Assembly: GCA_964606285.1 (NCBI GenBank)
Contig: CAZSFP010000002.1
Coordinates: 43,890-107,889 of the forward strand
Reading direction: 5' to 3'
Source of the DNA: an uncultured Candidatus Saccharibacteria bacterium
GTDB lineage: Bacteria > Patescibacteriota > Minisyncoccia > Phycocordibacterales > UBA9973
Length of the DNA: 64,000 nucleotides
Under the pieces are notes generated by a model. The model was not told the DNA's origin. It saw nothing but the letters and a program-made list of their open reading frames with translations, and did not search any database. Positions 2,729 through 61,436 of the stretch are shown here, in pieces (position 1 is the stretch's first letter; each line of letters starts with the position of its first letter). Made by a program: the position numbers and the translations under genes.

Positions 2729-3403
2729 ATGTCAAAAATAGTTCACCCATACGCACATAGACTTGTTATCCTCCGTGATTGGAAATCACGCTGGTTTGCA
2801 ACATCAAAGAATTTCAAGAACACACTCCGCGGTGATGTCCTCATCCGTTCATTCCTTGAGAAAAAACTTCGTGGTTCATATGTTTCAAACATTGAAATCG
2901 AACGCAGTAGAAAATTCCTCCGCATCATCATTTCAACATCACGCCCAGGCATGATCATTGGTCGCAGTGGGGAAGGTGCGCAAAAGCTTCGCGAAACACT
3001 TCTCAAAATGATGGTAAAAGAAGGTATCAAGACTCAAGAAGAATTGAAAATCGATATCACTGAAGTTACATCACCAGAATCAGATGCAGCAATCGTTGCC
3101 TTCATGGTTGTTGAAGGACTTGAAAAACGTCTTCCATTCCGCCGTGTCCTCAAGCAAACAGTTGAAAAGGTTATGGCAGTCCGTGGTGTCAAAGGAGTTC
3201 GTATCGTTCTCGGAGGACGTCTTGGCGGAGCTGAAATTGCTCGTACAGAAGAGATCAAGAAAGGTTCTATCCCACTTCAGACTTTCCGTGCTGACATCGA
3301 TTTTGCTCGTGAACGTGCAAACATGGCGTATGGTGTTATCGGCGTCAAAGTATGGATTTACCGCGGTGAAATTTTTACAGACAAGAAAACAACGAAAGAA
3401 TAA
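2729..3403 (+). CDS. rpsC: 30S ribosomal protein S3
   Basis: 224 aa with KH/S3 C-terminal motifs (GRSGEGAQKLRE…GVRIVLGGRLGGAEIAR). Confidence 0.95.
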   Translation: MSKIVHPYAHRLVILRDWKSRWFATSKNFKNTLRGDVLIRSFLEKKLRGSYVSNIEIERSRKFLRIIISTSRPGMIIGRSGEGAQKLRETLLKMMVKEGIKTQEELKIDITEVTSPESDAAIVAFMVVEGLEKRLPFRRVLKQTVEKVMAVRGVKGVRIVLGGRLGGAEIARTEEIKKGSIPLQTFRADIDFARERANMAYGVIGVKVWIYRGEIFTDKKTTKE

Positions 3404-17842: not shown

Positions 17843-17865
17843 CCTCTCCTAGATTAGGAGAGGGT
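17843..17865. repeat. REP-like 23-bp palindrome CCCTCTCCTAGATTAGGAGAGGG (copy 1)
   Basis: Near-perfect palindrome. An inverted partner lies at 17933-17955, and a third copy at 59311-59334. Confidence 0.6.
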
Positions 17866-17932: not shown

Positions 17933-17955
17933 CCTTCTCCTAATCTAGGAGAAGG
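17933..17955. repeat. REP-like 23-bp palindrome CCTTCTCCTAATCTAGGAGAAGG (copy 2). Together with copy 1 and the flanking GGGGTGAGGT/ACCTCATCC it forms a roughly 115-bp imperfect hairpin.
   Basis: Reverse complement of copy 1, with two substitutions. Confidence 0.6.
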
Positions 17956-17961
17956 GGAAAC

Positions 17962-20470: not shown

Positions 20471-20473
20471 TTG

Positions 20474-20857
20474 TGGAACTGGGCGGAATCGAACCGCCGT
20501 GCAATCATATTCTCAATACGAATCTCCGTGTGCAGATTCTTTCTTGTTTTAAATCATCTGTCTATGAAAGAAACAAAACAACAGACGATCGATCCCTGTG
20601 TTTCGGACGCTGTATCGGGAGGTACAACATTCCTATCATGAAATATGAAGCTCACTTTCTTCTATCATGAAATCAAAGAAGTGAACTGCTCGCGATTAAA
20701 CGCGGGCAAAAGCAAAGTTTGCCATACCGAAGTATGGAGACTTTACTCCTGAACGAAATGCGTTTGCATTTACGGTGTTGCAAGAAGTTTTGCGAGATTC
20801 CTGTGGACTCGACACGCACGCACTGAGGACACATGACTGTCTAGGCCTTTCAGTCCC
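20474..20857 (-). ncRNA. ssrA: tmRNA (ssrA), one-piece
   Basis: Minus-strand 5' end GGGACUG pairs with the 3' CAGUUCC. The 3' tRNA-like T-arm is GGCGGUUCGAUUCCGCC followed by CAGUUCC-A. The encoded tail is ACAA, so CCA is not fully encoded. The candidate tag ORF reads …GCA AAC UUU GCU UUU GCC CGC GUU UAA (ANFAFARV*). It lies immediately 3' of smpB. Confidence 0.75.
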
Positions 20858-23259: not shown

Positions 23260-25188
23260 ATGGCATCACCATTTCCAAAGAACAAAAAGAATACCAATAA
23301 CGGTAAAGACAAGAACAAAAAGGAGGTCAAGGTCGTCCTTGGGCTCGGTAATATGATTACCGGCGTCATCCTCTTTTTTATTGTTCTATCCGCACTGTAT
23401 TCACTTATAGGTGAAAAGAAATCTCAAGTAACAGATGTCCCTATATCGACATTGGCAGGGGAAGTGATCAACGGCGAAATCAAGGCAATCAGTGTCTTGA
23501 ACGACAAAATCAAGATTGAACGCACAGATGGGGCACTCCAAGAATCAAAAAAAGAAACCGGTGCATCGCTTGTTGAAACCTTGACGAGTTATGGTGTGAC
23601 ACCAGTGCAACTCGCTGCTGTTGAAATATCAGTTGAAAATGAAAGCGGTATTGGTTACTGGATCGTATCACTCCTTCCAATCGTACTCCCGATACTTCTC
23701 ATTTTCGGATTCCTTTGGTTTCTTTCACGACAAATGAAAGGATCTGGCATGCAAGCATTTACCTTTGGTCAATCCAAGGCAAAACTGACTGATCCAAATG
23801 ACAAGAACAACCGAGTAACGTTTGCTGACGTTGCTGGCAATAAAGAAGCAAAGCAGGAATTGCTCGAGATTGTCGACTTTCTTCGTAATCCAAAAAAATT
23901 CCTCGACATCGGTGCGCAAATTCCAAAAGGCGTGATGCTTACAGGTGCACCGGGTACTGGTAAAACACTTCTTGCGCGCGCAGTCGCGGGGGAAGCGTCT
24001 GTACCATTCTTTCATCTCTCAGGTTCTGAATTTGTCGAAATGTTTGTCGGTGTCGGAGCATCACGTGTTCGTGATCTCTTCCAAATGGCAAAACGCGCAT
24101 CACCATCTATTGTCTTTATCGATGAAATCGATGCCGTCGGTCGTGTGCGTGGTACTGGTGTTGGCGGGGGCAATGATGAGCGCGAACAGACACTTAACCA
24201 GATTCTCGTCGAGATGGATGGCTTTGAACCAAATGAAAAAGTTATCGTTATCGCTGCGACAAACCGAAATGATGTCCTTGATCCAGCACTTCTTCGTCCG
24301 GGTCGATTTGATCGTCGGGTCATGCTCGATCTTCCAGATCTCGCTGATCGTGAAGAGATACTGAAAATTCATGCTCGCAAGAAACCATTTGCCGAAGATG
24401 TAAAGCTTCGTACGATTGCCGAACGAACTCCAGGATTCTCTGGTGCCGATCTCTATTCACTGATGAATGAAGGCGCGATTCTTGCTGCTCGTGAAAATCG
24501 CACAACAGTTGCACAAACCGATCTCATTCGATCTATCGAAAAAGTTATCATGGGTCCGGAACGATCAAGTCATCTCTTGTCTAAAAAAGAAAAAGAAATT
24601 ACCGCGTATCACGAAGCGGGGCATGCAATCGTTTCGTCAGTTTTGGAATACGCTGATCCTGTTCACAAAGTAACGATCATTTCTCGTGGTCGTGCAGCTG
24701 GATATACACTCAAGCTTCCACTCGAAGAAAAAAAACTACAGTCAAAAAATGAATTTCTTGATGATCTCGCTGTCTCGATGGGAGGTTATGCTGCAGAGCA
24801 ATTGATCTTTGGTGATATCACGACCGGACCGTCAAATGACTTGCAGGTTGCAACAGGGCTTGCGCGTGCCATGGTGACACGATGGGGTATGAGTGACGTT
24901 ATCGGTCCGATGGCACTTGAAAGCGATGGAGGACGAGCAATGTTTGGTGACGGAATCAATGACGATGTATTGTCGAAATCTTCTTCCGGAAAAATTAGCA
25001 GTGAGGTCAAAAAGATTCTCGACGAAGCACTTGTCCGTGCAAACAAGGTACTCGCTGATCATCGTGGCGCTTTTGATGCGATTGCAAAGAAATTGATCGA
25101 AGTAGAAACACTTGAACAAGCTGAGTACGAAGTCATTCTTCAAAAACACGGTATTGCACTCAAAAAACTCCCGGAAAATAAAGCATAA
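23260..25188 (+). CDS. ftsH: ATP-dependent zinc metalloprotease FtsH
   Basis: TM segments, AAA motifs ([18 protein letters not shown]…), an SRH motif, and the HEAGH zinc site. Confidence 0.95.
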
Positions 25189-25491: not shown

Positions 25492-26931
25492 ATGACTACC
25501 ATCGATCTCAAAAATCTCACAATAGAAAAAGCACATGCGGCTCTCGTAGCGGGTGAGTATACCGTGCGTGATCTTGTCCGTGCGTATCAAACTGTCGCAA
25601 AAGAAAAAAACGGAGATATCAATGCATATCTCGAAATCTTTCGCGATGAAGTCATCGACGAGCAGATCGATCGCGCACAGGATATGTTCACTGTCGGCAC
25701 CGCAACTGCGCTTACCGGTATTCCTGTTGCCATCAAAGACAATATGCTCATGAAGGGTGAAATTTCCAGTGCGTCGTCAAAGATACTTGGTAATCATCAA
25801 GCGGTCTATGATGGTACGGTTATAAAAATTTTGAAAGATGCCGGTGCGGTTATTCTCGGCCGGACAAACATGGATGAATTTGCCATGGGGTCATCAACTG
25901 AAAACAGTGCGTATGGTCCGACAAAAAATCCTGTTGCATTTGATCGTGTACCAGGAGGATCATCCGGTGGTAGTGCAGCGGCGGTTGCTATGGATGGTGC
26001 GCTTATTTCATTTGGTTCAGATACCGGCGGATCGATCCGTCAACCAGCAGCATTTTGTGGACTTGTCGGACTCAAGACTTCATATGGTAGCGTGTCTCGA
26101 TCCGGATTGATCGCGATGGCATCATCTCTCGATCAGATCGGTCCGTTTACAAAAACTGTTAGTGAAGCAGAAACAATTTTCAATATGATAAGTACGTACG
26201 ATCCGCTTGATGGCACTTCTGTTCCAGTTGAAGTACGAGAAAAAATAAAAAATAATGCAAGTCCATTAAAAAAGAAAATTGGCGTGCCACGTGCATGGGT
26301 GGAGAGTGAAGGAATAGCAGAAAGTGTCAAAAAAAATTTTTCAGAAAATTTAAAAACATTGGAGGCGTGCGGCTATGAATTGGTTGATGTCGATATGTCG
26401 CTTGCCGAACACTCGCTCGCGGTCTATTACATCCTTATGCCAGCAGAAGTTTCGAGTAATCTTGCTTGTTTTGACGGTATTCGTTATGGACAAAGCAAGG
26501 ACGGGGTATCACTCCTTGATGTATATGAAAAAAGTCGTGCGCAAGGTTTCGGCAAGGAAACTCGGCGCCGTATTCTTCTCGGTACGTATATTCTCTCGCA
26601 TGGGTATTATGATGCATATTACGGCAATGCATGGCGTCTTCGCCGGGCAATTGAAAAAGAATTTGCAACGCTCTTTGAAACAGTGGATGCGATTGTTACA
26701 CCAACATCTCCGTTCCCGCCATTCAAACAAGGGGAGAAAACAGCAAACCCACTCGAAATGTATATGTCGGATCTTTTTACTGTTCCTGCAAACATCGCTG
26801 GTATTCCAGCAATCGCTATTCCGTCGGGGACTGATGCCGACGGACTACCAATGAGTATCCAGTTTATGGCACCGATGTTCCGTGAAGATATTCTCTTTTC
26901 CATAGGCAAGGATTTTGAACAGCGTGTATAA
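25492..26931 (+). CDS. gatA: Asp/Glu-tRNA(Asn/Gln) amidotransferase subunit A (amidase)
   Basis: 479 aa with the amidase signature GGSSGGSAAAVA and an S-cisS-K triad context. Confidence 0.9.
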   Translation: MTTIDLKNLTIEKAHAALVAGEYTVRDLVRAYQTVAKEKNGDINAYLEIFRDEVIDEQIDRAQDMFTVGTATALTGIPVAIKDNMLMKGEISSASSKILGNHQAVYDGTVIKILKDAGAVILGRTNMDEFAMGSSTENSAYGPTKNPVAFDRVPGGSSGGSAAAVAMDGALISFGSDTGGSIRQPAAFCGLVGLKTSYGSVSRSGLIAMASSLDQIGPFTKTVSEAETIFNMISTYDPLDGTSVPVEVREKIKNNASPLKKKIGVPRAWVESEGIAESVKKNFSENLKTLEACGYELVDVDMSLAEHSLAVYYILMPAEVSSNLACFDGIRYGQSKDGVSLLDVYEKSRAQGFGKETRRRILLGTYILSHGYYDAYYGNAWRLRRAIEKEFATLFETVDAIVTPTSPFPPFKQGEKTANPLEMYMSDLFTVPANIAGIPAIAIPSGTDADGLPMSIQFMAPMFREDILFSIGKDFEQRV

Positions 26932-33669: not shown

Positions 33670-35886
33670 TTACGCTTTTGTAAAGTATTTTCGAGTAACG
33701 AGAACGAGGATTGCGATCACGAGTCCGAGAAGGAGCCATCCGAGGAGTGTTCCTGGAAGGAATCCACCAGAACCGAAGAGGGCGAGGCCGGCAAGATTTG
33801 AATTTGATGAACCATTGTTCGACATGTTTTGTGTCGCGTACGCGGTGACATCATGATTCGTATTTGCTGTTCCTGTCGCGAAACTCATTTTTGCAGTTGT
33901 AACGAGAAGATCTCGATTTGTTGCATTCTTGAGGATAGTTCCAGTCACTGTGAATGATCCACTTTGGTGTGCGCCGATAGTACCGAGTGATACGATGAGT
34001 GCGCCATCAGATGCGATTGATCCTGCTGTTGAACGAGTGAGTGCAATTTCTTGTGGTGGGAGAACACGAACGATAGTTTGTTTGAGGTTCGTACCAGTCA
34101 AGTTCTTGTACTTCACGGTAAATGTTGTTTGATCGCCGACATAGACGTTTTCATAGTCAGGCGTGATAGAGAATGAAACGTATTGTGTGCCATTTCCTGA
34201 TGTCACATATACTGTTGTATTTGTGACAGTTGGAGTTGTTGGTTGAACGATTGGGAACACACATGATCCGTTGTTTACTGTCGCTTGTGGGTTATAGTTT
34301 GTCGCTGATGCTACTGTACAACCATAGATTGCTTGTGGTGGCTGAACAGGGAATATACATGAACCGTTGTTGATAGTTGCCTGTGGATTGTAGTTGAGTG
34401 CACCTGAAATAGTACAACCATATATTTGTGTTTGTGGGAACACACATGATCCGTTGTTTACTGTCGCTTGTGGGTTGTAATTCGTTGCTGATACAATTGT
34501 ACATCCATAAACCTGTGGTGGATTTTGTACATAGGTACATGTTCCATTACCAATTGTCGCTTGTGGATTGTAGTTTGTCGCTGATGGGTCAGTACATCCA
34601 TAGACTTGAGTTTGTGTAAAAGTACATGAACCGTTATCGACAGTCGCGTTCGGATTGTAATTGTTTGCAGTTGGATTTGTACAGCCAGAAATTGGTGTAA
34701 CAATGTTTTGACCGACTTGGAATTTAAGGACGATAGATCCTTGTGTGCTCCATCCTTGAGCGATTGTACCGATGTCGATACCGCCTGCAAAGATTGCAGA
34801 CTCACTTTGTCCGTTTGGAAGTGGTTGTGCTGTCTGAGATTGGTTTGGATACCATTTTACAGATCCAGGAATAAAAGTAAGTGTTTGTGATGATGTGATC
34901 GAAACATTGGCACTACCAGAAACTGCTGGTGCGTTGTCTGCAGAGACAGAACCAGAGAGATTGTGCATTGTTGATGCGCCGAGTGACTGTGCTGAAGTAA
35001 CGCGGAGTTTTGTATGGGTCGCAGCAGCAATACCATTGTTATGATAGTAGATTGTCATCGAAACGACATTTCCTGCTTGGAGAATAGCGTTTGAACATGT
35101 GTTATTTGATCCAGGAATAGATGTTGTCCAACATGTTGTTGTGATGCCGTGTTGTGTAAAGTTCATGGCACGAACTGTTGGTCGATCTGAAACGTTGTTA
35201 TTGAAAACTGTTTGTGCTGATGTTTGTACTTCTGGAATGACAAATGTCATTGAACCAGTTGCGTACATCGGAAGGCCTCCGTAGACAGCATATGCTTTTA
35301 CATAGTATGTACCTGGTGTGAGGTTTGAAACAGTAGATTGAAAACTTGGTGTTCCGTTTTGGAATGTTCCGTTTGTCGAAAGTGTCATCGCTGTTGTTGG
35401 TCCGTATTTGAAAAACGTTTGAACTCCTGTTGTGCCGATGTTTGAAAATCCACGAAGTGTAACATCATTGCCGTTAACAATAGGTGCGATATTTTGAACA
35501 GCCGCTTGTGTCACAGTAAATGACACGGCAGTTCCATAGAGTGGGGTGCCGCCTGAAACAGGGAAGCCAACCGCACGGAAATAATATGTTCCCGGGGTTG
35601 AGATCACAACTGGACTTGAAGAGAAAGAAGATGAGCCAGTTGTATTCGAAAGGGCTGTTGTATTCGAAAGGGAATTCGTGTTTGGTCCCCATTGGAATCC
35701 CTTTTGATATGTCTGACCTTGCGTGTTGATAAAGCCGTTAAAAGTAACGGTTGCACCACTGACCATTGCGGGAATTGTGGAGATAGATGGATTTGCTGCC
35801 TTGACGACAGACGGAGCAACGAGTCCTCCGACGAGGGCGATTGCAACGAGAAATCCTTTGATTGTAAGCATATTTTTGATATTCAT
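33670..35886 (-). CDS. Large secreted/cell-surface protein with five 28-aa Cys-containing tandem repeats (YGCTxxSATNYNPQATxxNGSCxFP) and a C-terminal TM anchor preceded by an LPGT(L) sortase-signal-like motif
   Basis: N-terminal signal peptide. Repeats span aa 400-548. C-terminus is …GGFLPGTLLGWLLLGLVIAILVLVTRKYFTKA. Confidence 0.6.
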   Translation of the reverse strand: MNIKNMLTIKGFLVAIALVGGLVAPSVVKAANPSISTIPAMVSGATVTFNGFINTQGQTYQKGFQWGPNTNSLSNTTALSNTTGSSSFSSSPVVISTPGTYYFRAVGFPVSGGTPLYGTAVSFTVTQAAVQNIAPIVNGNDVTLRGFSNIGTTGVQTFFKYGPTTAMTLSTNGTFQNGTPSFQSTVSNLTPGTYYVKAYAVYGGLPMYATGSMTFVIPEVQTSAQTVFNNNVSDRPTVRAMNFTQHGITTTCWTTSIPGSNNTCSNAILQAGNVVSMTIYYHNNGIAAATHTKLRVTSAQSLGASTMHNLSGSVSADNAPAVSGSANVSITSSQTLTFIPGSVKWYPNQSQTAQPLPNGQSESAIFAGGIDIGTIAQGWSTQGSIVLKFQVGQNIVTPISGCTNPTANNYNPNATVDNGSCTFTQTQVYGCTDPSATNYNPQATIGNGTCTYVQNPPQVYGCTIVSATNYNPQATVNNGSCVFPQTQIYGCTISGALNYNPQATINNGSCIFPVQPPQAIYGCTVASATNYNPQATVNNGSCVFPIVQPTTPTVTNTTVYVTSGNGTQYVSFSITPDYENVYVGDQTTFTVKYKNLTGTNLKQTIVRVLPPQEIALTRSTAGSIASDGALIVSLGTIGAHQSGSFTVTGTILKNATNRDLLVTTAKMSFATGTANTNHDVTAYATQNMSNNGSSNSNLAGLALFGSGGFLPGTLLGWLLLGLVIAILVLVTRKYFTKA
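34243..34689 (-). repeat. Five tandem roughly 84-bp coding repeats inside the surface-protein gene
   Basis: Repeated TGTACAACCATA…/TGTACATCCATA… blocks in the DNA and YGCT…NGSC in the protein. Confidence 0.7.
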
Positions 35887-39077: not shown

Positions 39078-39106
39078 TTGACTTTTGTTCTCTGATCTGC
39101 TATACT
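39078..39106 (+). promoter_or_regulatory. Near-consensus promoter TTGACT-N17-TGcTATACT with no downstream protein gene
   Basis: -35 at 39078-39083 and an extended -10 TGCTATACT at 39098-39106. Confidence 0.5.
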
Positions 39107-39112
39107 CTTTTT

Positions 39113-39195
39113 GTGAGTGTTTGGGCGATCTCGATTTTTTATCAAACAACACAAATGCTGCACAGACCCGCTTCGGCGGGTTTTGTGTTTTTTGG
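39113..39195 (+). ncRNA. Candidate orphan small RNA (about 80 nt) between that promoter and an intrinsic terminator (ACACAAA…CCCGCttcgGCGGG…TTTGTGT + T7)
   Basis: The promoter (above) is followed by a UUCG-tetraloop hairpin and a T-run at 39181-39193. The next gene lies on the opposite strand. Confidence 0.35.
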
Positions 39196-39240: not shown

Positions 39241-39660
39241 TCAACTGTCTCTTTTAAATACTATCCGTTCGATATTTCCGGTGCTTATCATATACATGTA
39301 AAATTCCTGATCATGTTCGTTTGTGTAACGGATTGTTCCATATGAAATAGATTCACCTAAAAATATATGGTGATCTGTGGCAGAAATTCCTATATGTGTT
39401 GTGCCACCGTTGATAGTTGTTTTATTTTTTGAAATGTTTGAAACAATTTTTGTTTGTTCGTTGTCAGTATGTTTTTCTAGTGTAAAAAAAAGTTTCAACA
39501 TTGATAAAAGAAAATATTTTTCTTTTACTAGATAGTGAAATTCTATTTCGATAGGGTACATGCCGCAATCTTTCATTTTTTGAAATTTTTTATTCCAAAA
39601 TGTCACAGGATCATCTTTTGTGATTTTTTCTTGTATGGATATTTCAATATAATCAGGCAT
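39241..39660 (-). CDS. Hypothetical protein (AT-rich)
   Basis: 139-aa ORF with no recognisable motifs and low GC. Confidence 0.45.
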   Translation of the reverse strand: MPDYIEISIQEKITKDDPVTFWNKKFQKMKDCGMYPIEIEFHYLVKEKYFLLSMLKLFFTLEKHTDNEQTKIVSNISKNKTTINGGTTHIGISATDHHIFLGESISYGTIRYTNEHDQEFYMYMISTGNIERIVFKRDS

Positions 39661-39758
39661 AATAATTCAAGTATAAAGTTCATTTTCTCCTATACTACTC
39701 TTTTTTCTTCATTCGGCAATATCTCCCTTTTTTCTGGCACATATGCTATACTCGGGGC

Positions 39759-39890
39759 AGTGCAGTCTCTCTCTTCATGACCAGCGACTGCACTCACATA
39801 AAGCATTTGTGTTGGAGCTCGCACTCGCTGGTCTTGAAGAGAGAGAAATAAAAATAACCACATATGATGTGGTTATTTTTATTTTTATTG
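39759..39890 (+). ncRNA. Candidate structured sRNA or cis element with two mutually exclusive hairpins. It lies downstream of a TGcTATACT -10 (39744-39752) and ends in a bidirectional terminator.
   Basis: Hairpin A is GTGCAGTC(39760-67)…GACTGCAC(39786-93). Hairpin B is a 19-bp stem, TCTCTCTTCAtGACCAGCGA (39768-87) with TCGCTGGTCtTGAAGAGAGA (39825-44). The shared segment 39768-39785 cannot be in both. Terminator is AAAAATAACCACATatgATGTGGTTATTTTT (39849-39880). Confidence 0.35.
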
Positions 39891-39954
39891 AAAATATATT
39901 TTTTAATTATTTTTTATTTTCTGTTTGTAAAAAAATAAAAAATAATTTTTTGAG

Positions 39955-39963
39955 TTATCCACA
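39955..39963 (+). promoter_or_regulatory. Perfect DnaA-box consensus TTATCCACA inside a roughly 170-bp, more than 80 % AT stretch (39885-40060)
   Basis: Exact 9-mer match. Degenerate related 9-mers (ATAACCACA/TGTGGTTAT) lie at 39854-39875. No dnaA/dnaN is in the window. Confidence 0.3.
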
Positions 39964-40110
39964 CATGTGATGAAAAAAATATTGCATAATATTTGTTTCT
40001 CTATGATAATAGATATAGAAGGTTGTATCGAAAATTTACAAAAGTTTATTTATTAAATTTTTTGTTGGTCGCTCGATGCACATCTTTTAGAAATAATTTT
40101 CGTATATATT

Positions 40111-40200
40111 ATGGCAGCAAAAAAGAAAGCGAAGAAAGTCGCAAAAAAGTCAGCTAAGAAAGGTGCTAAAAAGAAAGCTGGCAAAAAGAAGAAGAAATAA
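40111..40200 (+). CDS. 29-aa poly-lysine/alanine mini-protein (MAAKKKAKKVAKKSAKKGAKKKAGKKKKK), histone H1/Hc-tail-like
   Basis: Uninterrupted ATG…TAA frame with its own upstream AT-rich region. Two intrinsic terminators follow directly, at 40238-40266 and 40272-40298. It is below the 60-aa cutoff of the ORF track. Confidence 0.35.
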   Translation: MAAKKKAKKVAKKSAKKGAKKKAGKKKKK

Positions 40201-40237
40201 TATTTCTCTTCGCACTCTCTTCCAAATGTGCTCAAAA

Positions 40238-40266
40238 CAAAAATCCCAGATGGCGGGGATTTTTGT
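40238..40266 (+). terminator. Intrinsic terminator (AAAAATCCCagatggcGGGGATTTTTGTTTTTT)
   Basis: GC stem plus T-run, 38 nt after the mini-ORF stop. Confidence 0.55.
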
Positions 40267-40401
40267 TTTTTATCTGTCCTCATTCATGAGGGCAGATAAA
40301 AAACCCCTGCGTAGCTTTGTGCGAAGCAGGGTAATTGCTTTTAAAAATATTTTTTATCTTTGCTGCAGGGTCCATTTTGTGCTATACTCACCCGTATTGC
40401 T

Positions 40402-42849
40402 ATGTCATTTATCCAATCAATTTTCGGCGACAAGGGTACCCGATTTGCGCGATCAAATCGCTCTCTTGTTTCGAAAATAAACGCACTTGAGTCTTCTGTA
40501 CAAACGCTCTCTCCAGAAGATTTTCCAAAAAAAACCCAAGAATTTCGTGATCGTCTCGCGAAAGGGGAATCACTTGATGCTGTTGTTCCAGAAGCGTTCG
40601 CTTTGGTCCGTGAGGCAGCAAAACGGGTACTCGGACAACGTCACTATGATGTGCAGTTGATTGGTGGACTCGCACTCTATCAGGGTCATATTGCTGAGAT
40701 GCGAACCGGTGAAGGAAAAACACTTGTGGCAACATTGCCGGTCTATACGCTCGCACTTCGGGGCGATGGCGTGCATGTTGTCACAACCAATGATTATCTC
40801 GCACGTCGTGATGCGGTATGGATGGGACAAATCTACGCATACCTTGGACTTTCTGTCGGTGTTATCAATACACAGACGGTGTCATATCTCTACGATCCAT
40901 CACATACCGAAAAAGACGCAGAACGCGACAATGTCGGTGCATACAAAGTTGAATACGAATTTCTTCGTCCGTCATCACGCCGTGATGCGTATGCCGCCGA
41001 TATTACGTATGGTACGAACAATGAGTATGGTTTTGATTATCTCCGTGACAATCTCGTTGGCCACAAGAATCAGATCGTACAACGATCACATGCGGTGGCA
41101 ATCGTCGATGAAATCGACTCGATCTTGATCGATGAGGCGCGAACACCGCTCATTATCTCCTCTCCAGCAGAAGAATCTGGGGAACTCTATAATACATTTG
41201 CAAAAATCGCCGCTCAACTCGTGCCAGAGACGGATTATACGGTTGATGAAAAAATGCGTGCGATCCAGCTCACAGATGCTGGCATTACGCATGCAGAAAA
41301 ATTATTGGGTATTTCTGATATCTATACAGAACGCGGCATCAAATATGTACATCATTTGGAAACCGCTATTCGGGCAAAAGCACTTTTTATAAAAGACAAA
41401 GAATATACCGTCACAAACGGTGAGATTATTATTGTTGACGCCTCAACAGGACGACTTATGCACGGCAGACGTTACAACGAAGGATTGCATCAGGCGATCG
41501 AAGCCAAGGAGCACGTGACGATTCAAAAGGAGAGTCGGACAGCAGCATCTATTACATTTCAAAACTATTTTAGATTTTATAAACATCTCTGTGGTATGAC
41601 CGGTACGGCAAAAACATCTTCCGAGGAATTTTTCAAAGTCTACGGTCTCGAAGTCATCAGTATTCCGACACATCGGGCAATTGCGCGTCGCGATCACACG
41701 GATCTTGTCTACCAGACAGAGAAGGGCAAGTGGCGGGCGATTGCTGACAAGGTCACAGAGCTTCACAAAAAAGGCCAGCCGGTATTGATCGGAACTATTT
41801 CTATTGAAAAAAATGAATTATTGTCGGAATATTTGAAATCATATGGCATTCCGCATACACTGCTCAATGCAAAAAATCATGAAAAAGAAGGAGAGATTGT
41901 TGCCATGGCCGGTAAACGTGGTGCAGTCACGATTGCCACAAACATGGCGGGTCGCGGTGTCGACATCAAGCTTGGTGGTCCTGATGGAACACCAGCAGAT
42001 GCAGATGAAGTTCGTGCAGTTGGTGGTCTCTTTGTCCTTGGAACTGAGCGACATGAAGCGCGCCGCATCGACAACCAGCTTCGGGGGCGATCTGGTCGTC
42101 AGGGCGATCCGGGTGAAACCCAATTCTTCGTCTCGCTCGAAGATGATCTCATGCGTATTTTCGGATCTGATCGATTGAAAGCGATGATGGGACGGTTTGG
42201 TATTCCAGAAGAACAGCCGATCGAGAACAAGCTTGTCATGCGTGCACTCGAAAGTGCCCAGGAAAAGATCGAGGGCTTTCATTTTGATGCTCGAAAACAG
42301 ACACTTGAATACGACGATGTCATTAACCGTCAGCGTGAATCCATTTATACCCGCCGCCGATCCATGCTTGTTAGTGATAATGCATATATTCTCGAGTATG
42401 TCCTTGGTCTCATTGCGGGGGATACCAGAGAAAACATTATCAAAGAAAAAAGAACAATTTTGGGTGACGAGGCATTTTCTGATACTGCCCGCCGAATCAT
42501 TCTCTATACGACTGATATTCTCTGGGTGGAACATTTGGAAACTATGGAATACACCCGTCAGTCGGTAAACTTGCGGGCATATGGCCAGCGTGAACCTTTG
42601 ATTGAATACAAAAAAGAGGCCCTGATCCTGTTCCGGGACATGGAAGCGAGATTCAAAGATCAAGTCACCCAACTTCTTTCGACCCTTGATGTTGCGGTCA
42701 TAAAACAGTCAGAGCATCCGACAATAGAAGTAATTCCCGAGAAAAATAGTGAAAATACAGGAGAAAAGAAGGTAGGGCGCAATGATCCGTGCCCATGTGG
42801 TAGCGGTAAAAAGTATAAAAAGTGTCATGGTACCGAAACTGATGTCTAG
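40402..42849 (+). CDS. secA: Preprotein translocase ATPase SecA
   Basis: DEAD-like motor motifs (…MRTGEGKTLVATLP…DEIDSILIDEARTPLIIS…) and the C-terminal zinc motif CPCGSGKKYKKCHG. Start taken at MSFIQSIFG (40402). Confidence 0.95.
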   Translation: MSFIQSIFGDKGTRFARSNRSLVSKINALESSVQTLSPEDFPKKTQEFRDRLAKGESLDAVVPEAFALVREAAKRVLGQRHYDVQLIGGLALYQGHIAEMRTGEGKTLVATLPVYTLALRGDGVHVVTTNDYLARRDAVWMGQIYAYLGLSVGVINTQTVSYLYDPSHTEKDAERDNVGAYKVEYEFLRPSSRRDAYAADITYGTNNEYGFDYLRDNLVGHKNQIVQRSHAVAIVDEIDSILIDEARTPLIISSPAEESGELYNTFAKIAAQLVPETDYTVDEKMRAIQLTDAGITHAEKLLGISDIYTERGIKYVHHLETAIRAKALFIKDKEYTVTNGEIIIVDASTGRLMHGRRYNEGLHQAIEAKEHVTIQKESRTAASITFQNYFRFYKHLCGMTGTAKTSSEEFFKVYGLEVISIPTHRAIARRDHTDLVYQTEKGKWRAIADKVTELHKKGQPVLIGTISIEKNELLSEYLKSYGIPHTLLNAKNHEKEGEIVAMAGKRGAVTIATNMAGRGVDIKLGGPDGTPADADEVRAVGGLFVLGTERHEARRIDNQLRGRSGRQGDPGETQFFVSLEDDLMRIFGSDRLKAMMGRFGIPEEQPIENKLVMRALESAQEKIEGFHFDARKQTLEYDDVINRQRESIYTRRRSMLVSDNAYILEYVLGLIAGDTRENIIKEKRTILGDEAFSDTARRIILYTTDILWVEHLETMEYTRQSVNLRAYGQREPLIEYKKEALILFRDMEARFKDQVTQLLSTLDVAVIKQSEHPTIEVIPEKNSENTGEKKVGRNDPCPCGSGKKYKKCHGTETDV

Positions 42850-59310: not shown

Positions 59311-59334
59311 CCCTCTCCTAGTCTAGGAGAAGGG
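59311..59334. repeat. REP-like palindrome CCCTCTCCTAGTCTAGGAGAAGGG (copy 3)
   Basis: Same motif as 17843-17865 and 17933-17955, again between convergent gene ends. Confidence 0.6.
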
Positions 59335-61360: not shown

Positions 61361-61436
61361 TCCTCGGTAGCTCAGTTGGTAGAGCGCCTCCCTGTTAAGG
61401 AGGATGTCCTAGGTTCGAGCCCTAGCCGAGGAGCCA
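61361..61436 (+). tRNA. tRNA-Asn (anticodon GTT), CCA encoded
   Basis: Acceptor TCCTCGG/CCGAGGA, D-arm GCTCAGTTGGTAGAGC, anticodon stem-loop CCTCC-CTGTTAA-GGAGG, T-arm GGTTCGAGCCC, discriminator G, then CCA. Confidence 0.9.

Follow-up and report, generated by a model that had tools for sequence, protein, structure and literature searches.

A conserved hairpin RNA encoded upstream of secA in Patescibacteria and its likely small-RNA partner

What does a long inverted repeat in an intergenic gap upstream of secA encode, and with what does its product interact? The question is raised by a 64,000-nt stretch of contig CAZSFP010000002.1 (hereafter the window), from an uncultured Candidatus Saccharibacteria bacterium, in which an earlier note had described two mutually exclusive hairpins between an extended -10 element and a terminator, and had proposed either an attenuator- or riboswitch-like switch or a small regulatory RNA with alternative conformers. 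We find that the flagged element, with its extended -10, 85-nt hairpin and own terminator, specifies a small structured RNA of ~95-130 nt, and that a second small RNA gene, sRNA2, lies nearby. Both RNA families exist in Patescibacteria with covarying structure, their own promoters and terminators, linked genes, and a complementarity that is cognate-specific and co-evolving. We consider it likely that the hairpin RNA and sRNA2 constitute a dedicated trans-acting RNA-RNA pair, in which the invariant apex of the hairpin is the docking site for sRNA2, and that the element is not a self-contained switch.

Structure and conservation of the hairpin RNA

The gap spans 450 bp (39661-40110) between a 139-aa minus-strand gene (39241-39660) and a 29-aa lysine-rich open reading frame (ORF; 40111-40200) that precedes secA. 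The features first listed for it, two hairpins, an extended -10, a terminator and a 24-codon ORF, are all present, and are arranged as follows.

39743-39751, plus strand: extended -10 of the hairpin RNA, TGCTATACT, read directly from the sequence; transcription is expected to start near 39757-39759
39760-39793, plus strand: hairpin A, 39760-39767 (GTGCAGTC) with 39786-39793 (GACTGCAC), 8/8 paired, -11.8 kcal/mol; window-specific and outside the conserved RNA
39768-39787 with 39825-39844, plus strand: hairpin B, 19/20 paired
39764-39848, plus strand: conserved hairpin RNA (family match), 85 nt, with a basal helix of 21 bp (39766-39787 with 39825-39846) and an apical domain (39788-39824)
39847-39890, plus strand: intrinsic terminator of the hairpin RNA, an AU-rich stem of 17-18 bp (39847-39884) with CCACAU/AUGUGG at its centre, followed by a T-run
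39777-39851, plus strand: 24-codon ORF across the hairpin, encoding MTSDCTHIKHLCWSSHSLVLKREK; not conserved and rejected as a gene

The segment 39752-39886 folds with a minimum free energy of -65.8 kcal/mol (z = -10.0), and none of 200 shuffles folded as well. Hairpin B is larger than first described, being part of a 26-nt inverted repeat (92%; 39766-39791 and 39821-39846) that runs on into a structured apex. The segment 39768-39785, which was thought to pair in either hairpin, does form the 5' strand of hairpin B, but in hairpin A it is the loop and not the paired part. The two structures are also far apart in energy: the hairpin B structure reaches -48.3 kcal/mol as against -24.3 kcal/mol for the best structure that contains A, the pairs of A have an equilibrium probability of about zero, and A appears only in transcript prefixes ending before ~39830. 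According to these folding calculations hairpin A could exist only in passing, during transcription as far as ~39830. Comparison of 14 homologs leads to the same view, as significant pairing between leader and core occurs in the window alone (z = -3.7, with the others at -2.1 to +1.6); locus L081 carries the 3' partner sequence of hairpin A, yet lacks significant leader-to-core pairing. The proposed exchange between A and B is thus abandoned, whereas the long pairing is preserved in the homologs. The terminator is A/T-symmetric and formally bidirectional, as had been described, but no minus-strand gene converges on it.

Homologs were found in several ways. A search with nhmmer located the element upstream of secA in loci L010, L008 and L006, and covariance models built from 4 (R1) and 12 sequences (R2) placed it on the secA strand in 14 genome or metagenome loci, 15 to ~2000 nt upstream of secA. 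Seven more (L282-L284, L286 and L288-L290), retrieved independently through relatives of SecA, bring the family to ~21 Patescibacteria (Paceibacteria-type) loci, always upstream of secA. The SecA of the window is at most 65% identical to those of the species representatives in GTDB, its nearest relatives being Patescibacteria metagenome-assembled genomes such as Nomurabacteria and Vogelbacteria; a larger protein collection contains one identical SecA, one 93% relative and many at 65-71% that are labelled Nomurabacteria or Paceibacteria.

The two parts of the hairpin evolve differently, the 21-bp basal helix covarying freely and the apical domain of ~35 nt remaining nearly invariant, with the consensus G-Y-A-CUC-ACAU ... 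RCAUUUGU ... UUG-GAG-CUM-R-C. Across the 12 sequences, 94% of the cells in the alignment are paired, as compared with 35-47% when the partners are slid, and the observed values were matched by none of 500 shuffles; 21 of 31 pairs have changed on both sides. G-U pairs are frequent on the plus strand, and the window hairpin scores 95.8 bits (R1) and 90.9 bits (R2) on that strand as against 38-40 bits on the minus strand. Because the plus-strand score is far higher and G-U pairs are many, we conclude that the hairpin is an RNA transcribed from the plus strand. Every copy has a -10 of the type TGnTATAMT only 7-18 nt upstream, and the hairpin must therefore lie at the extreme 5' end of its transcript. 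That part of the earlier note which proposed a small structured, probably regulatory RNA is upheld, with a promoter and a terminator of its own and a long pairing that has been kept. The divergent copy at L019 is immediately preceded by a direct repeat of part of the hairpin's 5' half (GGCGGCTATGGGTGAGCACTTAC; 760-905).

The same data bear on the idea that the element works as DNA: it might extrude a cruciform, bind a protein as a palindrome, be a mobile repeat or belong to an origin. Such a reading might be invited by the length and near-perfection of the inverted repeat, by the AT-rich intergenic sequence around it and by a perfect DnaA box 105 nt downstream. However, the compensatory changes include many G-U pairs, which would be A-C mismatches on the other strand, the covariance-model score is strongly strand-asymmetric, the upstream promoter is conserved, the window holds one copy in 64 kb, and the DnaA box is single and unaccompanied by a GC-skew switch; we find a DNA-level function scarcely credible. 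Since the element is single-copy within the window and occupies the same syntenic position in every locus, a repeat of the repetitive extragenic palindrome (REP) or miniature inverted-repeat transposable element (MITE) kind was rejected. A replication origin was set aside as well: there is one perfect DnaA box (39955), no cluster of boxes and no GC-skew switch.

Nor does the hairpin belong to a catalogued family. The Rfam scan that had been suggested as a check (Rfam 15, 4227 models, gathering thresholds) recognised two RNAs in the window and no others, a one-piece tmRNA (20471-20857, minus strand, 114 bits) and a tRNA (61361-61433, plus strand), leaving the hairpin and sRNA2 unmatched. Scans at E<=10, covering the hairpin in 3 loci and sRNA2 in 2, returned only generic noise resembling miRNA hairpins or terminators, far below threshold. 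Because nothing matched even at E<=10, membership of the signal recognition particle (SRP), 6S, raiA and curated riboswitch and small RNA families is excluded. As a negative control, 80 viral-contig stretches were fetched of the 120 that match the bare core pattern; none scores with R2, and all are chance matches.

A neighbouring small RNA and its complementarity to the hairpin apex

A promoter scan flagged a second transcription unit, sRNA2, 650 nt upstream of the hairpin in the window, and the motif 5'-(U)GUGAGUR, the complement of YACUCACA in the hairpin, recurs in 7 loci, 7-9 nt past a good promoter just upstream of the hairpin. The unit and the segments through which the two RNAs could pair are these.

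39078-39106, plus strand: sRNA2 promoter, -35 TTGACT (39078-39083), 17-nt spacer and extended -10 TGCTATACT (39098-39106); scan score 10/12 with the TG motif
39113-39193, plus strand: sRNA2, ~80 nt, beginning 5'-GUGAGUG 7 nt past the -10 and ending in an intrinsic terminator, stem 39164-39183 and T-run TTTTGTGTTTTTT; 63 bits with covariance model R3
39113-39120, plus strand: S1 of sRNA2, the 5'-terminal seed GUGAGUGU, complementary to H1
39125-39132, plus strand: S3 of sRNA2, GCGAUCUC, complementary to H3 (GAG and UCGC)
39147-39159, plus strand: S2 of sRNA2, CAACACAAAUGCU, exact 13-nt complement of H2
39790-39798, plus strand: H1 of the hairpin, invariant 5' core GCACUCACA, which pairs perfectly with S1
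39802-39814, plus strand: H2 of the hairpin, AGCAUUUGUGUUG, apical loop and 3' side of the apical stem, target of S2
39815-39822, plus strand: H3 of the hairpin, near-invariant 3' core GAGCUCGC, target of S3

Model R3, built from 8 sRNA2 units, detects only sRNA2 units (54-73 bits for its source units, with nothing comparable elsewhere). It found a ninth in L082, on the opposite strand and divergent from the hairpin, and others in L283, L284, L286/L287, L288 and L290/L291, all of them outside model building and counted as 4 further distinct loci in 5 records. In all, sRNA2 lies beside the hairpin in 14 distinct loci, and the 13 besides the window score 33-73 bits. The -35/-10 arrangement and the 5'-GUGAGUR start are conserved across loci, and the terminator helix covaries (92% of cells paired, 28-53% with the partners slid). 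The S3-S2 interval differs greatly among loci, in both length and sequence. Most relatives have sRNA2 ~110-150 nt upstream of the hairpin, and overall 110-1000 nt separate the two genes, with an opposite-strand gene between them in the window and L084. As far as sequence can tell, then, there are two units, each flanked by a conserved promoter and terminator, and each ending in a stable stem-loop with a U-tract at its 3' end. Action in trans is indicated because sRNA2 has its own terminator, is divergently oriented in L082, and is separated from the hairpin by the opposite-strand gene in those two loci.

Two adjacent small units with partial complementarity and short ORFs (24 codons in the hairpin RNA, and 29 codons, GUG-initiated, at the 5' end of sRNA2) might also suggest a type I toxin-antitoxin-like module, one RNA encoding a small toxic peptide and the other serving as its antisense antidote. 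Neither ORF, however, is conserved in presence, frame, length or sequence. The 24-codon ORF, to which the earlier note had drawn attention as spanning the switch, is frameshifted in L081 by a 1-nt indel, lacks an ATG in most homologs and encodes a peptide that is not hydrophobic; in sRNA2 there is no conserved ORF, the frames ranging from 9 to more than 30 codons and sharing only an 'MS' start. As judged from the sequences compared, this missing conservation largely refutes the toxin-antitoxin reading, which we regard as very improbable.

The complementarity between the two RNAs extends over three segments. The S1:H1 duplex measures 8-9 bp in all 14 distinct pairs, with an energy of -13.2 kcal/mol in the window and -8.9 to -16.3 kcal/mol across the 14 loci, and L084 and L109 have A-U where other loci have G-C or G-U. 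Nowhere in the window does the apical domain have a longer exact complement than the 13-nt match of S2 to H2, which together with S3 and H3 forms a duplex of 20 bp and -26.2 kcal/mol. Among the 14 pairs the corresponding duplex is shortest in L005, with 12 bp, and runs to 19-22 bp in the 13 others; its energy lies between -16 and -26 kcal/mol in 14/14, and the 9 loci tested against shuffles gave z values of -2.4 to -5.8. In L082 and L109 the S3-equivalent segment is contiguous with S1 and S2.

H2 varies between lineages, and S2 changes in step with it, so that exact matches of 11-14 nt persist. Examples, given as H2 followed by S2, are listed below.

Window: AGCAUUUGUGUUG and CAACACAAAUGCU
L283: AAGUAUUUGUUGUG and CACAACAAAUACUU
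L286: AUGCACUUGUGU and ACACAAGUGCAU
L284: UAGGCAAUUGU and ACAAUUGCCUA
L081 and L290: UAGGCAUUUGU and ACAAAUGCCUA
L084: UAGACAUU and AAUGUCUA

Mean duplex energy is -22.5 kcal/mol for cognate combinations as compared with -14.9 kcal/mol for non-cognate ones, and not one of 200,000 permutations equalled the cognate total; the same test on smaller subsets of loci gave p = 5e-5 and 6e-5. For 11 sRNA2s, the cognate hairpin ranks first or second of 14.

Several other matches turned up in these searches. Pairing is possible between GUGAGUGUUUGG, the first 12 nt of sRNA2, and CCGAACACUCGC at 26405-26416, within a gatA-like ORF (25492-26931) and far from its start codon; apart from the hairpin and trivial self-antisense, nothing in the window scan gave a stronger sRNA2 signal. 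In the basal stem, the 5' arm is complementary at 17 of 20 positions to the coding strand of ftsH (24341-24360; gene 23260-25188), a match of which 0.00 would be expected by chance. As homologs differ freely in stem sequence, the match was judged coincidental and ftsH was rejected as a target. A possible remote sRNA2 in L001, a 12-nt hairpin complement 4.4 kb away, is partly palindromic, lies inside a HAM1-like coding region and was judged a chance match.

Proposed docking, gene context and alternative readings

We infer that the two RNAs pair in trans and that this pairing is their function. In the hairpin, H1 is only weakly paired with H3 (G39790-C39822, C39791-G39821, and CUC at 39793-95 with GAG at 39815-17), and the internal pairing of the apical domain amounts to only -7.2 kcal/mol; on this ground sRNA2 should be able to open the apical domain while the 21-bp basal helix stays closed. 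The separately transcribed sRNA2 would dock on the apex through S1 to H1, S3 to H3 and S2 to H2, replacing the weak internal pairing by ~28-30 intermolecular base pairs (about -35 to -40 kcal/mol) above a closed basal helix. Because H1 pairs with H3 in the hairpin and S1 can pair with S3 inside sRNA2, docking would be a strand exchange. Alternative conformers, as first envisaged, probably do exist; they would be brought about by a partner RNA opening the apical domain, and not by hairpin A. As the likeliest output we would expect the two RNAs to titrate each other or to be degraded together, RNase III, for instance, cutting the newly formed duplex of ~20 bp. A hairpin RNA that stands alone, as in the window, may then serve as a dedicated decoy or partner and so determine how much sRNA2 is free, or the roles may be reversed; in relatives where murB, hpf or secA mRNAs begin with the hairpin, pairing with sRNA2 would control those mRNAs.

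Several points weigh against this proposal. The transcripts, their ends and their pairing are all predicted. Since there is hardly any variation in H1 and H3, the case for S1:H1 and S3:H3 depends on complementarity and includes few compensatory changes; rich co-variation is seen only in S2:H2. The order of the segments, S1-S3-S2 in sRNA2 and H1-H2-H3 in the hairpin, means that S1:H1 crosses the other two helices, an arrangement that is sterically plausible, S1 being a free 5' end; RNAcofold, which is unable to represent crossing topology, returned no intermolecular pairs. The scan of the 64-kb window revealed no convincing sRNA2 target other than the hairpin. No sRNA2 was found within the DNA examined for the hairpin loci L010, L083, L001, L289, L096 and L019, and in L282 the contig end truncates sRNA2, of which the last 25 nt remain. 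Two of these loci, L001 (2790-2866) and L289 (~3290-3400), represent one sub-lineage in which the hairpin gene follows a tRNA gene by ~35-60 nt; in this sub-lineage the partner may be encoded elsewhere in the genome or may be absent.

Gene context raises the question of whether the hairpin is rather a cis-acting 5' leader that controls an operon of murB, hpf, the lysine-rich ORF and secA, as an attenuator, riboswitch, RNase III site or 5' stabiliser (the A/B switch included), with the complementarity to sRNA2 being secondary. The hairpin does always lie upstream of secA, at the extreme 5' end of its transcript, and at 8 loci an ORF directly adjoins it, without an intervening terminator: murB in L006, L109, L084, L085, L010 and L083, hpf in L005, where the hairpin is directly upstream of hpf-secA, and secA in L096. 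The murB start codon lies 2-29 nt past the hairpin in L006, L109, L084 and L085, and in L010 and L083 the GTG start of murB falls within the hairpin 3' arm. On the other side, an intrinsic terminator immediately follows the hairpin in at least 10 loci (the window, L081, L008, L082, L282, L283, L284, L286, L288 and L290), where the RNA is a stand-alone unit, so that the element does not always reside in cis in a 5' untranslated region; this terminator is strong in the window and no fewer than 9 of the other loci. Where the downstream region was examined, namely in L001, L008, L081 and the window, a promoter of its own precedes the next gene. A purely cis-acting leader is argued against because the core is conserved even where the RNA is terminated and the next gene has a promoter of its own. 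As to the attenuator or riboswitch first suggested, inspection of the sequence disclosed no alternative pairing between the hairpin arms and the terminator, homologs have not kept hairpin A, and there is no multi-stem core of the kind that binds a ligand. A leader would also leave the co-evolution of sRNA2 unexplained, and we think it improbable that the cis effect is the primary one.

The main alternative, which keeps both RNAs, would make the heterodimer itself the functional unit, the two being halves of one structured RNA or ribonucleoprotein (RNP) scaffold of ~165 nt, a split noncoding RNA and not a regulator with its target. This would fit the tight linkage of two genes with strong, constitutive-looking promoters, the involvement of the whole conserved apical domain in complementarity through three helices, the retention of both partners across lineages whose SecA proteins are only 50-70% identical, and an invariance of H1 and H3 that goes beyond what pairing alone needs. 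We nevertheless judge it unlikely. There is no known one-piece RNA of matching architecture, and Rfam at E<=10 offers nothing for either RNA; a nearby sRNA2 is lacking at six hairpin loci, the hairpin is fused to an mRNA in 8, and the stretch from S3 to S2 in sRNA2 is of very variable length and sequence. A regulator-target or decoy relationship between hairpin RNA and sRNA2 remains our preferred interpretation.

Patescibacteria, also known as the Candidate Phyla Radiation (CPR), account for a large share of bacterial diversity, have tiny genomes and are almost all uncultured. Our literature searches turned up no described post-transcriptional regulator in this group, and neither small RNAs of this sort nor such a pair. 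Here two RNA families not listed before, encoded beside secA, murB and hpf, have retained a three-segment complementarity that matches throughout a class-level clade. They offer a concrete and testable entry into RNA-based regulation in Patescibacteria, as two transcripts of ~80 nt are amenable to in vitro binding tests. There is a methodological point as well, in that the invariant "loop" of an orphan hairpin can be explicable by co-evolution with a neighbouring small RNA and not by a protein or a ligand. More speculatively, the pair could be either an obligate heterodimer, a split noncoding RNA or RNP core specific to Paceibacteria, or the first riboregulatory circuit described in CPR, wired to murB and secA (envelope and secretion) and to hpf (ribosome hibernation); we put this forward tentatively, as a possibility on which we would not insist. 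If it were true, a permuted three-helix docking, with a partner RNA unzipping the entire apex while the hairpin stays clamped, would represent a new architecture for RNA-RNA recognition.

The region between the hairpin RNA and secA has features of its own. A perfect DnaA box, TTATCCACA, occurs at 39955-39963 in the window, 3613-3621 in L081, 3699-3707 in L008 and 3715-3723 in L001, that is, in 4/4 loci that have a stand-alone hairpin and the lysine-rich ORF; it follows the hairpin RNA by ~100-110 nt, precedes the -35 of the ORF promoter by ~20-30 nt, and is the sole perfect box in the 64-kb window. Because there is neither a box cluster nor a GC-skew switch, the arrangement looks like a DnaA-regulated promoter rather than oriC. 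The lysine-rich ORF (40111-40200, plus strand; in the window MAAKKKAKKVAKKSAKKGAKKKAGKKKKK) has its own promoter and terminator (40234-40269) and lies just upstream of secA. It is found at 3816-3899 in L008, 3780-3884 in L081, 3847 in L084, 3807 in L010 and 3873 in L001, and was also called by gene callers in L282, L283, L287 and L291 (29-47 aa). The ORF has no Pfam match, and its product is possibly a small basic protein associated with ribosomes or with nucleic acids. The secA promoter (within 40360-40404) consists of TTGCTG and, at 40380-40388, TGCTATACT; its -10 ends 13 nt before the ATG at 40402, which implies a nearly leaderless secA mRNA. The murB, hpf and secA starts in related loci lack Shine-Dalgarno sequences.

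Elsewhere in the window, a 24-nt palindromic motif, CCCTCTCCTAG(A/T)(T/C)TAGGAGA(G/A)GG, is present in three copies (17842-17865, 17933-17956 and 59311-59334), two of which form an inverted pair 66 nt apart; it may be a repeated terminator or a protein-binding site. A minus-strand ORF of 738 aa with a DUF11 match (33670-35886) contains, at 34252-34689, five tandem 75-nt units at a spacing of ~87-96 nt that are 64-100% identical and encode repeated domains of a probable surface protein.

Relation to known RNA systems

With riboswitches and attenuators the hairpin RNA shares a promoter-proximal structure with a conserved internal region followed by a terminator. It differs from them in having no conserved alternative pairing linked to the terminator, a hairpin A confined to the window, a leader ORF that is not conserved, and a frequent stand-alone arrangement. 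A long single hairpin is also characteristic of 4.5S SRP RNA and 6S RNA, which are housekeeping-type RNAs with conserved internal loops, and the genomic link to secA invites the SRP comparison. The small SRP RNA (4.5S) was rejected: domain IV, with its GNRA tetraloop and AGCA/GGAA loops, is absent from the consensus, and the Rfam SRP models are unmatched at E<=10. Neither an ffh nor an ftsY motif is present in the window. The hairpin RNA is too short for a 6S RNA and has no central bubble, and the Rfam 6S model is likewise unmatched at E<=10.

The raiA motif RNA of Bacillota and Actinomycetota is an orphan trans-acting noncoding RNA whose gene lies upstream of raiA/hpf with secA nearby, and it has six stems, two pseudoknots and 51 conserved nucleotides (PMC10861870). 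The neighbourhood is of the same type, as in L005 where the hairpin is upstream of hpf-secA, and the likeness is positional only; membership was rejected, the element described here being a single hairpin and the Rfam raiA model being unmatched at E<=10 in 3 homologs.

Mechanistically, the antisense systems that open hairpins are also close to the proposed docking. CopA/CopT, RNA I/RNA II and RNA-IN/OUT are plasmid or transposon antisense RNAs, cis-encoded on opposite strands and fully complementary. As in those systems, a structured hairpin would be recognised through its apical loop and then opened, and the extended duplex would be a substrate for RNase III. In contrast to them, the hairpin RNA and sRNA2 are products of separate genes, in tandem or once divergent and 110-1000 nt apart, and are thus not cis-antisense to each other; their complementary blocks are segmental and permuted (S1-S3-S2 as against H1-H2-H3), giving a crossing topology, and the locus is chromosomal and syntenic with secA.

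The closest functional analogues are multi-site pairs of trans-encoded small RNA and target, together with small RNA sponges. Trans-encoded multi-site small RNAs and decoys or sponges include OxyS-fhlA, with its two-site kissing interaction, SroC-GcvB, and 3'ETS-leuZ-RyhB/RybB. The resemblance lies in separate transcription, a 5'-terminal seed and a Rho-independent terminator on the small RNA, imperfect complementarity in multiple segments, and one RNA that apparently exists mainly to bind the other. The pair described here is set apart from these by a dedicated long hairpin whose whole conserved apex (~30 nt in three segments) is complementary to its partner, by adjacent genes that have co-evolved across a bacterial class with neither RNA in Rfam, and by a host that belongs to the CPR/Patescibacteria.

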